In this document: positions 11,661 through 17,186 of the stretch, one piece after another
How positions within the stretch are numbered: position 1 is the stretch's first letter
How the letters are laid out: every line of letters starts with the position of its first letter
DNA from: a virus
Lineage: Duplodnaviria > Heunggongvirae > Uroviricota > Caudoviricetes
Virus record (IMG/VR): IMGVR_UViG_2563366972_000006
Direction: 5' to 3' (one strand)
DNA length: 34,196 nucleotides
The notes under the pieces: model-generated
What the model saw: only the letters and a program-made list of their open reading frames with translations
Told to the model about the DNA's origin: nothing
Databases searched by the model: none
Translations under genes and position numbers: made by a program

Positions 11661-12176
11661 ATGGAAATAACTAAAGAACGATTATTGGAAATAGCAAATC
11701 TTAGTGATAGGGCATTAAGTGATGGGAGAATTATTTCTCCTGATGCTTATGAATCAGTTACAAGTATAGAAATAATAACGATGGCCAGGATGCTTCTTGC
11801 TTGCTTCAAAAAAGAATATAAAAAACAGGTAGATAGCAATGCTAATATATATGATATTTTGGACAGTTGGGGAGCTTGGGCTGTAGCTGGAAATAGTTCT
11901 ATCAACTGGCAGCAAGTGGCTGATAAATATAAAGATGTTGTGCCTCATGGTAAAAAATTGCGTCGCCAGAGCAGCGATGATGAAGGGCGAGTGATTGATG
12001 AGTGGATATTGAGACTCAGACAATATAAAATAGATGAATATGAGTTAATTGTTGCCCACTTTGTAATAGGCGTTTCTTTGAGAAAGATCGCAAAAAGAAA
12101 TAAATGTGCGGATGGGACTATTAGAAAAAAAATACAAGCAGTGATGGGAATATTGGAGGGAGTATTAATGTTCTAA
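11661..12176 (+). CDS. Q-like late regulator (QuuD/Phage_antitermQ-like) with N-terminal extension; AT-rich
   Basis: C-terminal part WGAWAVAGN...RLRQYKIDEYELIVAHFVIGVSLRKIAKRNKCADGTIRKKIQAVMGILEGVL resembles recalled QuuD-family antiterminators; ATG at 11661 preferred over track GTG 11649 (GGAG RBS). Confidence 0.55.
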   Translation: MEITKERLLEIANLSDRALSDGRIISPDAYESVTSIEIITMARMLLACFKKEYKKQVDSNANIYDILDSWGAWAVAGNSSINWQQVADKYKDVVPHGKKLRRQSSDDEGRVIDEWILRLRQYKIDEYELIVAHFVIGVSLRKIAKRNKCADGTIRKKIQAVMGILEGVLMF

Positions 12177-12185
12177 CTGTTAGAG

Positions 12186-13418
12186 CTAAATAAAAATCTT
12201 CGCAAGAAATATTCCTGCTGCAATAGAACTTGGTAGCCAAGCCAAATACATAAATAACTTTATTGTATTATCACATTTGGTTTGGCTCTTTGATAGTTCA
12301 TATAGAGCCTCATTAATGTCCTTCTTAATGTCCTTCTTAAGGTCTTCTGGATAATTTTCATTGTTTTTTAGAAAAGGCATAAATGCTATATCTTTAGCAT
12401 GGCAAATATGTTTTAATTGTTTATCCTGATTGAGTAATACCATATGTAAAATAAGTGAGCTTAACAATACACCTAATAAAACGAGTAACATTTCAGATCT
12501 TGATGTTAGTTTTATAATCCCGAAGGATGCCAGTAAAGACACAGGGATTGATAATACTTTTGTCGTCAAATCAGTAATAAGTTTTGAGATTTTTTCAGCA
12601 AACTCTGCTTCAGACTTCGCAATTTCTTTTCGTGCCTTATGGAATGAAAAACCACTCATATACGTGGATAAATTATTTTCAAATAGCTTTACAAATTTAT
12701 CCCAATGGCAAATTAGGTTTTCAAAATCATATTTGTTATCGAGAATAAACTCCACTATGGTATTCCTGAAAATACCTGTTTTTTCTGCTTGATGGGGGAT
12801 TTGGGCGTTTTTTACATCTAAAAGACTCTTGATGATAGCATCATCAATGTCATTTATATTGAGCATCTTAGGTGTAATGCACGTTTCTAAAATAATAGAT
12901 GTTGATTTTGCGTCAGAATCTTTCACGAAAACTAAACGATAATTTGAAGATTCCGATTTTGTATCGTGAAAGTGCGCAATCTCAGCCTGGGAAGAAATAA
13001 TTGCACAAATTTTCTCGATTTTTATAATTTCGTCCGGTTTACTTGAATCAGACGGATGAAAATCCTCATCGATTATGTAATACTCTTTAGGAATTACACC
13101 TTTCTTGAGTGAGTTTATACAAAGGAACTCTTGAATTGAGTTATAGAAACGTTCTGCTCCATTTTTAGGGGATATGTAAGTGTATGAGAATTTATCTCCA
13201 ATTTTAATTGGGTGTGATTTTAAATCGTCTTCGTCAATGAACTCATTATTAATATCAACATCTTCAAAATAACCGTAGGCTTTATGTGAATTTACTAACA
13301 AGTTTACCAAACGTTGATTGTTATTATTTATTTCAACAGTTGCAGAAAAAGAACGTCCGTCGAATTGGGGCTTCGATGATGCTCTATAAAAATCCACAAC
13401 CGTTGATAAATTAGCCAT
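12186..13418 (-). CDS. Hypothetical protein, 410 aa, with three C-terminal hydrophobic helices; downstream gene of two-gene operon
   Basis: ATG at 13418 overlaps the stop of the upstream gene by 8 nt (ATGGCTAA); hydrophobic segments LSIPVSLLASFGIIKL, MLLVLLGVLLSSLILHMVLL, LFMYLAWLPSSIAAGIFLAKIFI; strongly AT-rich; no N-terminal domain recognised. Confidence 0.7.
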   Translation of the reverse strand: MANLSTVVDFYRASSKPQFDGRSFSATVEINNNNQRLVNLLVNSHKAYGYFEDVDINNEFIDEDDLKSHPIKIGDKFSYTYISPKNGAERFYNSIQEFLCINSLKKGVIPKEYYIIDEDFHPSDSSKPDEIIKIEKICAIISSQAEIAHFHDTKSESSNYRLVFVKDSDAKSTSIILETCITPKMLNINDIDDAIIKSLLDVKNAQIPHQAEKTGIFRNTIVEFILDNKYDFENLICHWDKFVKLFENNLSTYMSGFSFHKARKEIAKSEAEFAEKISKLITDLTTKVLSIPVSLLASFGIIKLTSRSEMLLVLLGVLLSSLILHMVLLNQDKQLKHICHAKDIAFMPFLKNNENYPEDLKKDIKKDINEALYELSKSQTKCDNTIKLFMYLAWLPSSIAAGIFLAKIFI

Positions 13419-15757: not shown

Positions 15758-16357
15758 ATGGCACATATACAACTGGTCAAACAAACTTCTTCTGGTTTAC
15801 TTCTCCCGGCGACACCGGAGAGTTGCGATTTTCTGCATCAAATCAAAATAGGCGAGTGGATACACGCTGACTTTAAGCGTGTTCGTAACTACGCATTCCA
15901 CAAGCGTTTTTTCAAACTTCTGCAACTGGGATTCGATTACTGGACTCCGATCGGAGGGGCGATCACGCCTCACGAACGAAAACTGGTGTCCGGTTTCGTT
16001 GATTACCTGTGTGAATCAGTAGGCCGGGAACATACGCCTGCTCTGAGCGAAGCCGCAGAGCAATATCTGAATACCGTTGCGACACGCAGAACCCAGGATA
16101 CGGCACTGCTCAAGTCATTTGACGCCTTTCGTGAATGGGTAACCATTCAGGCCGGATTTTACACTGAGCATTTTTATCCGGACGGTAGCCGTGGACGCCG
16201 GGCGAAATCCATCGCTTTTGCGAATATGGACGAAACCGAGTTTCAGCAGGTTTATAAATCTGTACTGAATGTGCTGTGGAACTGTATTCTGTTCCGTAAA
16301 TTTTCCTCTCCGGAACAAGTCGAAAACGTGGCCGCGCAGCTGCTGGAGTTTGCGTAA
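15758..16357 (+). CDS. DUF1367-like nin-region protein (YdfU-like)
   Basis: ORF tightly packed with the next two genes; recalled similarity to lambdoid nin-region DUF1367 proteins. Confidence 0.6.
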   Translation: MAHIQLVKQTSSGLLLPATPESCDFLHQIKIGEWIHADFKRVRNYAFHKRFFKLLQLGFDYWTPIGGAITPHERKLVSGFVDYLCESVGREHTPALSEAAEQYLNTVATRRTQDTALLKSFDAFREWVTIQAGFYTEHFYPDGSRGRRAKSIAFANMDETEFQQVYKSVLNVLWNCILFRKFSSPEQVENVAAQLLEFA

Positions 16358-16647
16358 TGGTGAATTTACGTAAAGCGGCGCGAGGCCAGATGTGTAAGGT
16401 CAGAATTCCTGGCTACTGCAATCACAATCCCGAAACGTCTGTACTGGCGCATTACCGACTGGCGGGAACGTGCGGAACAGCGATAAAGCCACACGATATG
16501 CAGGCAGCGATTGCCTGTAGCTCGTGCCACGATTTAATCGACGGGCGGGTAAAAACTAGCGATTACACCAAAGAAGAATTGCGCCTGATGCATGCAGAAG
16601 GTGTTTTTCGCACACAAGAAATCTGGAGAAAGGAAGGTTATTTATGA
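16357..16647 (+). CDS. DUF1364-like protein (YbcO-like), Cys/His-rich
   Basis: LRKAARGQMCKVRIPGYCNHNPETSVLAHYRLAG...ACSSCHD matches recalled YbcO family; overlaps neighbours at start and stop. Confidence 0.7.
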   Translation: MVNLRKAARGQMCKVRIPGYCNHNPETSVLAHYRLAGTCGTAIKPHDMQAAIACSSCHDLIDGRVKTSDYTKEELRLMHAEGVFRTQEIWRKEGYL

Positions 16648-17186
16648 TTTACCCAACGAATACAGGAAAAAGCGGAGAACACCTTCGTCTCACCACGCTG
16701 GAAAGTGTCTGGATTCAGGGAAAACTGCGCATGTGGGGGCGCTGGTCGTATATTGGCGGCGGTAAGACGGGGAATATGTTTAACCAGTTGCTGGCATCCC
16801 AAAAAATGACAAAAACAGCCATCAATGAAGCCCTGCGCAGATTGAAAAAAGCGGGAATTGATAAACCAGAGTTGGAAGCATTTTTGCGTGAGATGATCGA
16901 AGGAAAGCAAAAAAGCTGGTTAACTCACTGCACTGATGCAGAGGCACTAAAAATTGATAGTGTTATAGGTGAAGTTCTGGCGGATCATCCAGGACTACTA
17001 AATGTCCTGAGTCAGCGTTATGTGGGGCGAGGGATGAGTAAGAGAAGGATGGCCGAGTTATTAAACGAACAGTACCCAAAGTGGTGTTTTAGCACATGCG
17101 AAAAGCGAATTGCTAATTGGTTGGCTGTTGCTGAGTATGCTCTATACATTCCCATGCGAGAATCATTTGCTCAAAAAACGGCTTGA
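16644..17186 (+). CDS. Late-gene antiterminator Q-like protein, 180 aa
   Basis: Last gene of the nin-like cluster directly upstream of the tRNAs and lysis cassette; LRMWGRWSYIGGGK motif recalled from Q-family proteins. Confidence 0.55.
   Translation: MIYPTNTGKSGEHLRLTTLESVWIQGKLRMWGRWSYIGGGKTGNMFNQLLASQKMTKTAINEALRRLKKAGIDKPELEAFLREMIEGKQKSWLTHCTDAEALKIDSVIGEVLADHPGLLNVLSQRYVGRGMSKRRMAELLNEQYPKWCFSTCEKRIANWLAVAEYALYIPMRESFAQKTA

Follow-up and report, generated by a model that had tools for sequence, protein, structure and literature searches.

Why should a single lambdoid prophage carry two genes of the Q family? The question is raised by a 34,196-nucleotide (nt) stretch of Caudoviricetes DNA, IMG/VR record IMGVR_UViG_2563366972_000006 (the whole of this stretch is called the window below). 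An earlier note on this DNA had described two Q-family late regulators in it, one at 16644-17186 and the other at 11661-12176, convergent with an island of reversed genes. We call the upstream gene and its product Qup. We found that both genes do belong to the Q family, but that the upstream one is probably not a second late regulator, because the DNA site that accompanies it lacks the late-promoter core and the terminator which stand beside the same site in canonical relatives. We propose, with a probability of roughly 0.55, that Qup is the protein arm of a relocated module made up of a Q gene, a slot for defence genes and a Q site, and that it may regulate the defence operon that converges on it.

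Qup and the 12-bp site that travels with it

We analysed the family membership and the predicted fold of Qup. The open reading frame (ORF) at 11661-12176 on the plus strand encodes 171 amino acids (aa) from the ATG at 11661 (175 aa if translation began at the in-frame GTG at 11649), and in a near-identical E. coli locus the 171-aa form is labelled 'antiterminator Q family protein' by RefSeq. Both Q proteins of the window scored above the 26-bit cut-off of Pfam PF06530 (Phage_antitermQ), the downstream one with 29.9 bits and Qup with 101.8 bits (E=2.9e-29, aa 66-174 of the 175-aa ORF); Qup also matched PHROG 79, 'anti-termination protein Q-like', at 1e-29. By phmmer, its residues 67-144 align to residues 20-98 of Q21 (6JNX/6P18; E=0.006). 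In an AlphaFold model, aa 61-170 had a predicted local distance difference test (pLDDT) score of 84-91 in most blocks, with one block dipping to 63. A Foldseek search of the PDB with this model returned Q21 as all of the top 12 matches (probability 1.0; template modelling scores of 0.43-0.58, normalised to the target), followed by region 4 of extracytoplasmic function sigma factors, in agreement with the published, sigma-region-4-related fold of Q21 (10.1101/651190). By its sequence, then, Qup is an intact Q21-family protein, and the modelled fold matches that family.

The Q domain (11841-12176) carries an invariant helix-turn-helix, SLRKIAKRNKCADGTIRK. It is preceded by an N-terminal extension, codons 1-60 (11661-11840), which lies outside the Q domain, is absent from Q21 and from the 114-aa relatives described below, matches PHROG 3323 (function unknown; 6e-16) and was modelled with a pLDDT of only 41-55. 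The earlier note's picture of an AT-rich, N-terminally extended and QuuD-like Q gene is borne out by these searches, by a GC content of 0.39 (11501-12000) and 0.31 (12001-12500) against about 0.50 upstream of the gene, and by 33% identity of the Q domain to QuuD (YbcQ) of the K-12 prophage DLP12. Its account of the gene's right edge also stands: the Qup stop codon ends at 12176 and that of the convergent minus-strand ORF begins at 12186, leaving a hairpin-free gap of 9 bp. The likeness of Qup to the downstream Q protein is remote (BLASTP E=0.09), and Qup lies between the replication genes and DUF977 on one side and hok on the other, 4.5 kb upstream of the canonical Q position, which is occupied by the downstream gene.

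Qup is widespread and conserved as a protein. Of 5,426 complete E. coli genomes, 445 contain DNA matching most of the gene (11500-12137), and just four contain the entire island. One gene order recurs in 24 viral contigs, in four contigs from Salmonella and in several chromosomes of E. coli: a backbone gene (DUF977 or another), Qup on the plus strand, AT-rich cargo on the minus strand, hok, and farther downstream a DUF1133 gene or another Q. At least six unrelated types of cassette make up this cargo, and Qup allele identity follows cargo type. The Qup ORF is full-length in E. coli, in Salmonella and with every cargo type; in three of the 24 viral-contig copies (L025, L026 and L027) the match spans two frames near codon 76-100, and these may be pseudogenes or assembly errors. 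Over seven alleles, the Q domain gave a ratio of nonsynonymous to synonymous substitution rates (dN/dS) of 0.10-0.46 at dS of 0.43-1.3. The gene is a mosaic: codons 1-60 and the leader ahead of them hardly differ in DNA from one cargo type to another (dS 0.03-0.29), in contrast to an old and divergent Q domain. Since the leader occurs also in a Rac phage that has no Qup, it is part of the backbone, and the Q domain travels with the cargo.

A single 12-bp sequence, GCGTACGCAAAA, accompanies Qup wherever it is found. In the window it occurs once, at 14631-14642 on the plus strand, and every Qup locus that reaches past the cargo has exactly one copy, in plus orientation, at the promoter end of the convergent cargo. 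The layout of Q, AT-rich minus-strand cargo and one exact GCGTACGCAAAA was found in 24 of 25 Qup loci (L001, L002 and L004-L027), the sole exception being a sequence that ends 319 bp past the Qup match, as well as in four Salmonella loci and in L028-L031. Between cargo types the site sits in otherwise unrelated flanking sequence, and in Qup-less relatives with the same backbone it is absent. Because this site, on the island promoter, is the only sequence that always travels with the gene, the earlier note's suggestion of a regulator recruited to control the island fits better than its alternative of a remnant. Directly before the 12-mer, every Qup cargo type has T, which makes a 10-bp palindrome, TGCGTACGCA, where 35 of 37 non-redundant loci of the 114-aa relatives have C; this clade-specific difference might reflect a changed mode of binding.

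Promoters on both strands next to the site were scored with a position weight matrix (PWM), which replaced inconsistent by-eye readings in the rightward direction. The best leftward cargo promoter in the window (14643-14671, minus strand) has a -35 TTGACA at 14671-14666, a 17-nt spacer and a -10 CAAAAT at 14648-14643; it agrees with the consensus at 10 of 12 positions, has the top minus-strand PWM score (10.4) and places the site at about +1 to +12. The leftward promoter typical of the family (14613-14640, minus strand) has its -35, TTGCGT, within the site (14640-14635) and its -10 at 14618-14613. TTGCGT in the site belonged to the best minus-strand promoter within 75 nt in 28 of 38 loci of the 114-aa relatives and in 4-5 of six Qup cargo types, combined with a TAnnnT-type -10 at -13 to -18 whose exact hexamer varies by locus. 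The persistence of this signature while the -10 sequence varies argues that the leftward promoter is under selection rather than simply shared by descent. With either candidate, the site in the window lies on the predicted cargo promoter.

To the right of the site, Qup loci have little in common. The PWM scan gave no consistent rightward promoter beside it, no late-promoter core, TGTTAAGAGTGG, was found near it with up to 2-3 mismatches allowed, and the core and a nearby terminator are missing or degenerate with all cargo types. About 95 nt to the right of the site are unconserved between cargo types, and the next plus-strand terminator, where one was detected, is that of hok, 460-620 nt away.

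Canonical relatives and the defence slot

Qup has extension-free relatives of 113-118 aa, which are 53-59% identical to its Q domain; among them, the 114-aa 'minimal Q' proteins of Enterobacterales prophages (P0033 and its relatives) are 55-59% identical to Qup aa 62-171. A scan of genome contigs for relatives with a single protein gave no match; an alignment-based scan found 53 further Q loci, from Enterobacter, Citrobacter, Klebsiella, Kosakonia, Pantoea, Erwinia, Serratia, Yersinia, Xenorhabdus, Providencia and other genera, and about 70 related loci across Enterobacterales underlie the description of the module given here. The 114-aa protein is the only Q-family gene in its own phages and occupies the canonical position, in the order DUF968, Q, two convergent genes and holin. 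Among loci with at least 44% identity, 37 of 40 carry exactly one exact 12-mer, in constant orientation, 0.6-2.6 kb past the Q stop; the exact 12-mer was found in none of 13 more distant Q homologues. In the 114-aa loci the site is part of a larger plus-strand block, TAAC-GCGTACGCAAAA-ACTATCGTAAcCTGtTAAGAGTGGTcaCTT..CAC..CTTAA, followed in most loci checked by an intrinsic terminator 58-130 nt from the site and then by the late genes, starting with holin. The 114-aa Q and Qup thus share much, namely a helix-turn-helix of CSDGTIRK against CADGTIRK, an identical 12-bp site and the same convergent slot, but the 114-aa Q is the sole Q of its phage, stands directly before the lysis genes, has the core and terminator after its site and has no extension.

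The palindrome in the site changes together with the predicted recognition helix of the Q protein. Helices of the form CSDGTIRK go with GCGTACGC, those of the QuuD type, CSDG(Y/H)IGK, with ACGTACGT, and those of the ..EK.IRIE class with GCGG(T/A)CCGC, and in the non-Qup loci the palindrome stands at a fixed distance upstream of the shared core TGTTAAGAGTGG. Since palindrome and helix vary together, and the spacing to a shared promoter-proximal core stays constant, we read the 12-bp site as a Q-binding element (QBE), predicted to be cognate to the Q protein encoded in cis, and in the window to Qup. In loci L077, L081, L086 (~7395-7430), L079 and L080 the palindrome lies inside the Q coding sequence or a few bases past its 3' end; in one example, AGT GCG GTC CGC ATT TTT TGA encodes the last residues of the protein. 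In compact loci that are free of cargo, the core unit begins 8-34 nt after the Q stop. Two loci, L041 and L044, are modules of the CSDGTIRK-type Q class within one genome, that of Shigella flexneri SFBU0723, both with a full core, so co-resident phages of the same specificity class do occur; one of the two includes an ORF of 166 aa, possibly a further form with an N-terminal extension.

DLP12 offers a familiar version of the same arrangement. Its order is quuD, the minus-strand porin gene nmpC, ACGTACGT-AAAAAA, the core TGTTAAGAGTGG, a terminator and then essD and the lysis genes, and its core and terminator unit (L089, NC_000913.3 ~577,190-577,275), about 130 nt upstream of essD, is as in the 114-aa loci. 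Rueggeberg et al. (Microbiology, 2015) reportedly found the DLP12 lysis cassette to be under the control of the DLP12 Q protein. QuuD belongs to the same protein family as Qup; it differs in having 127 aa with no N-terminal extension, a canonical late position, a retained late-promoter core, a palindrome and recognition helix unlike those of Qup, and a cargo gene that starts ~370 nt from the site. Qup, in contrast, is one of two Q genes in its prophage, lies in the early region and has neither core nor terminator.

Q21 of phage 21 (PDB 6P18/6P19/6P1A and 6JNX) is a more distant comparison. Qup shares with it the Pfam family PF06530, the predicted fold and a related helix-turn-helix for DNA recognition, and the Q-binding element of Q21 overlaps promoter DNA (10.1101/651190). 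However, Q21 has 162 aa and a loop inserted in its helix-turn-helix, which in Qup is uninterrupted; it recognizes two directly repeated 8-bp subsites, as against an 8-bp palindrome with an A-tract here; and the sequence identity is ~18%. Antitermination by Qup is putative.

We then turn to what lies between Q and the site. In the window the convergent operon has two minus-strand genes. The first, gene A (13411-14607, with a RefSeq-style start at ATG 14553), encodes a NA37/YejK-like nucleoid-associated protein (PF04245, 2.8e-51), and the second, gene B (12186-13430), matches PHROG 5023 (1.9e-67). In the same order, the pair matches both NCBIfam models of DS-1, a validated anti-phage system with a YejK domain found by DefensePredictor (PMC13092281): NF053868 (DS1_1_antiphage) at 1.5e-28 and 99.9 bits against a cut-off of 330, and NF053869 (DS1_2_antiphage) at 2.9e-28 and 99 bits against 315. 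As these scores are far under both equivalog cut-offs, the pair is best taken as a distant relative of DS-1 and not its equivalent, with a putative defence role. PADLOC gave no match for either Q protein or for the window's own cargo.

The slots of other loci hold better-characterized systems. Between the Q stop and the 12-bp site, Qup and 114-aa loci together hold 31 protein families in more than 17 cassette types, including KwaA/KwaB (1.5e-135) and PD-Lambda-5 A/B (4.9e-75 and 4.8e-114), as well as PDC-M53A, a type II methyltransferase, a RelA/SpoT domain protein, NA37 pairs and DS-1-like pairs; several families, NA37-type pairs among them, are common to the two contexts. A slot has 1-3 genes, nearly all on the minus strand, with a GC content of 0.28-0.40; from the site to the first start codon of the cargo the distance is usually 10-130 nt, and at the other end the stops of Q and cargo are mostly separated by -19 to +36 nt. 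With many unrelated cassettes in one place, known anti-phage systems among them, the slot behind Q is a phage defence hotspot by its gene content. Like known defence hotspots (PMC13586616), it has conserved flanks around a place where unrelated anti-phage systems, here Kiwa and PD-Lambda-5, are exchanged. It differs from them in that its host is a lambdoid phage, one flank is a regulator and the other is the predicted site of that regulator, overlapping the cargo promoter.

Two loci depart from the all-minus rule. In L037 (7447-9742) a plus-strand Dam-like methyltransferase stands beside a minus-strand 463-aa gene, looking like a restriction-modification pair, and L055 has a small plus-strand ORF (7390-7710). 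We considered whether Qup is required wherever this slot has reversed cargo, and rejected it: phage mEp460 (L090, LR597641.1 ~33,800-35,200) has, in its LygF-to-hok slot, a single reversed 449-aa gene flanked by long stretches of normal GC content, and lacks both Qup and the site. That gene may be a different kind of mobile insertion.

The downstream Q gene, the Qup leader and the prophage backbone

We compared Qup with the other Q gene of the window. The plus-strand gene at 16644-17186 encodes a DUF1133 protein (PF06576, 7.6e-103) with matches to PF06530 (6e-07) and to PHROG 753, 'anti-termination protein Q-like' (8.7e-77). DUF1133 had been assigned to Q by HHpred in earlier work (PMC8136144); a limited search of the literature gave no experimental paper on DUF1133 proteins. 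The gene is preceded by DUF1367 and YbcO and followed by tRNAs and the lysis cassette, so that the earlier note's Q-like gene at the canonical position is confirmed by profiles and neighbours alike. Directly after it is a candidate PR'-tR' unit (17183-17305, plus strand), with a -35 TTGATT at 17183-17188 that begins in the DUF1133 stop codon, a 17-nt spacer, a -10 TTCAAT at 17206-17211, a short conserved transcribed region and then a terminator, GAACCCGCC..GCGGGTTTTG (17264-17295) plus a T-run. This unit directly follows DUF1133 in most of 14 aligned E. coli and Salmonella loci, despite differing downstream genes. From this classical arrangement of Q gene, PR' and tR', we take the DUF1133 protein to be the late regulator of the prophage, with antitermination as its predicted activity. 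In the related prophage L002, the DUF1133 position is filled by a 250-aa 'antitermination protein'.

Past the terminator are the genes for tRNA-Thr(TGT) and tRNA-Gly(TCC) (17538-17691, plus strand) and a plus-strand lysis cassette (18441-19964) of two holins, an M15 endolysin and Rz (PF16931, PF05449, PF13539 and PF03245). The tRNA pair has a promoter-like site of its own, TTGCGA-16-TATCAT at 17447-17474, within a stretch (17440-17537) that is conserved in several relatives.

The leader of Qup (11528-11660, plus strand; ~130 nt) follows the DUF977/LygF gene in Rac-like phages with or without Qup. It is conserved in all Qup cargo types and occurs also in the Qup-less Rac phage MN652886 and in L003 (~4020-4150). 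It contains a palindrome, CTGAAT-N6-ATTCAG, at 11554-11571, an invariant boxA-like sequence, TCCTTAAC, at 11591-11598 and a hairpin, GCCGCCC-GAAA-GGGCGGT, at 11631-11649, directly ahead of the Shine-Dalgarno sequence GGAG. In L023 the substituted positions of the hairpin still pair, though only via G.U, which suggests a structure formed at the level of RNA on the plus strand. No Rfam family matched the leader at either the gathering threshold or a permissive E-value, and neither a sigma-70-like promoter nor a terminator was called in it. The leader could be a nut- or put-like signal, or an element of translation or stability. A nut- or put-like antitermination site made of the boxA-like TCCTTAAC and the GAAA-loop hairpin was considered and obtained no support. 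It was also considered that the N-terminal extension might derive from a small ORF, 'HP1', which follows the same leader in Rac MN652886; this was rejected, as homology ends at the ribosome-binding site.

Profile searches show the window to be a lambdoid prophage of the Rac-like kind. Its minus strand carries an integrase (1-1236), a RecE-type exonuclease VIII (2811-5462) and a helix-turn-helix repressor (7541-7948), and its plus strand YdaT, DUF1376, a DnaC-like ATPase, DUF1627 and DUF977. RalA, the small RNA antitoxin of the RalR toxin and another feature of the Rac type, was found at 1557-1735 (Rfam, 207 bits). A plus-strand hok/sok toxin-antitoxin module with an intrinsic terminator (14735-15142, the terminator at 15125-15142; Rfam RF01794 sok, 102 bits, and Hok family matches) is the right flank of the cargo slot and is kept in all Qup loci.

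How Qup may act

The comparison with the 114-aa relatives suggests how the present arrangement may have come about. In the ancestral form, a 114-aa Q at the canonical position would have had its element inside a back-to-back promoter region, with the late core, terminator and lysis genes to the right and a cargo promoter, its -35 TTGCGT in the element, to the left. The module would then have moved to the early region between the replication genes and hok, gaining the 60-aa N-terminal extension, losing the core of the late promoter together with the terminator, and retaining nothing but the element on the cargo promoter. In a lysogen, the repressor would silence the early-right operon and Qup with it, and the defence operon would be on from its own promoter. 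Upon induction, Qup would be made with the early genes, bind the element and occlude the cargo promoter, and the prophage's own defence cargo would thereby be switched off or re-tuned during lytic growth. We infer the binding of the site by Qup, the timing of its expression and the sign of the regulation from sequence. Timing by induction is suggested by the place of Qup in the early-right operon, behind a leader with no called promoter or terminator, and repression is the likelier sign given that either the -35 or the start region is covered by the site.

Several observations weigh against this proposal. The -10 of the family-typical promoter is weak in the window (TGTCGT), so the overlap there depends on the other promoter, which has the site at +1 to +12. 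All of these promoters are predicted at the level of consensus, in AT-rich DNA, and the Qup form has been sampled with some 6-8 cargo types only. In addition, the segment equivalent to the Q21 torus by helix order (aa 80-105) is where the clades differ most (41% identity), yet it remains conserved among the Qup proteins (64% mean identity); as such a segment may be dispensable to a pure DNA-binding repressor, its conservation suggests that Qup may keep some activity directed at RNA polymerase.

Such an activity would be at the centre of a cascade in which Qup is a processive antiterminator. Loaded at a rightward promoter near the 14631 site, it would read through the hok terminator and let RNA polymerase reach rem, DUF1367, YbcO and the DUF1133 Q, making it an N-like switch of the middle stage. 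The whole Q domain is indeed under purifying selection with all subfamily-invariant residues kept, the orientation of the site relative to the Q gene is the same as in canonical loci, a strong terminator separates the site from the nin-like and Q genes downstream, and an N-like gene was not noticed in the window, where no systematic search for one was made. However, what stands beside the site in canonical relatives, namely the -10 at +20 to +25, the core TGTTAAGAGTGG and a terminator close by, is missing or degenerate with every Qup cargo type, and neither a consistent rightward promoter nor conserved DNA is found to the right of the site. Moreover, Qup-less Rac-like phages carry the same hok terminator and the same downstream genes, so Qup appears dispensable for passing that terminator. 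We consider the cascade unlikely.

Somewhat less probable still is the opposite sign of regulation, in which Qup, as a mimic of sigma region 4 at the -35, would boost the cargo promoter when early phage transcription starts. The site does coincide with an imperfect -35 (TTGCGT), and the fold of Q21 and its contact with the RNA polymerase dock resemble sigma region 4 (10.1101/651190; Foldseek). But defence genes serve the lysogen, in which a Q gene that closes an early operon is expected to be silent, and the 114-aa Q is a late switch. The cargo promoters also score as reasonable sigma-70 promoters unaided, and the window's best one puts the site at a position typical of a repressor.

It is improbable, too, that the main action of Qup is in trans, directed at same-class late promoters in other resident or superinfecting lambdoid phages, either triggering their late genes prematurely or sequestering sites. 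Targets for such cross-talk exist, as the identical 12-bp site with a full core is present in other E. coli, Shigella and Salmonella prophages, and the Q domain is constrained with its torus-equivalent segment included; this would leave unexplained why every Qup gene keeps a site of its own in cis on the cargo promoter. Lastly, that Qup is an inert remnant of recombination with another lambdoid phage, with no present function, is very improbable: the module clearly descends from a canonical Q cassette, so that the earlier note's 'remnant of modular recombination' holds as history, and the three frame-disrupted copies are what decay would give, but purifying selection over dS up to 1.3, full-length ORFs across species and cargo types, the frequency of the gene in E. 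coli and a site that is invariant amid unrelated flanks indicate that Qup is not a decaying relic.

The proposal that Qup regulates the convergent operon can be extended to a whole subfamily of Q21-type switch proteins in Enterobacterales phages, though we do so tentatively and put the extension at less than an even chance. The Q21-type element would double as the -35 of the divergent defence promoter, and a late-switch Q would silence its own cargo at the same moment as it turns on the late genes, Qup being a domesticated offshoot. If so, silencing by Q would be a built-in safeguard of the prophage against self-targeting, and Qup, with the late-promoter half lost, would be an induction-coupled regulator of defence genes only.

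Parts of this picture are already known: Q proteins, which form three families, and the structures of Q21 (PMC9388147); morons, such as nmpC, that lie between a Q gene and the lysis genes; and defence hotspots in P2 and P4. A limited search of the literature gave no description of the exact site of this Q subclade or of the series of co-varying palindromes and recognition helices, of a reversed cargo slot with a promoter overlapping the site, or of a relocated, N-terminally extended Q coexisting with a second Q.

The two Q genes of this prophage would accordingly not be redundant, one being the late switch and the other tied to a defence slot. For the family, three palindromes paired with three recognition-helix classes make a natural series of protein-DNA specificity among Q21-type proteins. 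For the lambdoid prophages of many genera, a CSDGTIRK-class Q with GCGTACGCAAAA 0.6-2.6 kb downstream points to a hotspot that can be searched for, and, if the extension to the subfamily is right, the Q gene and the 12-bp site would be a handle on a rich and unexploited store of defence genes, in which Kiwa, PD-Lambda-5 and DS-1-like systems already stand next to many uncharacterised cassettes. It would also provide a testable mechanism by which a prophage may escape its own defence cargo after induction.

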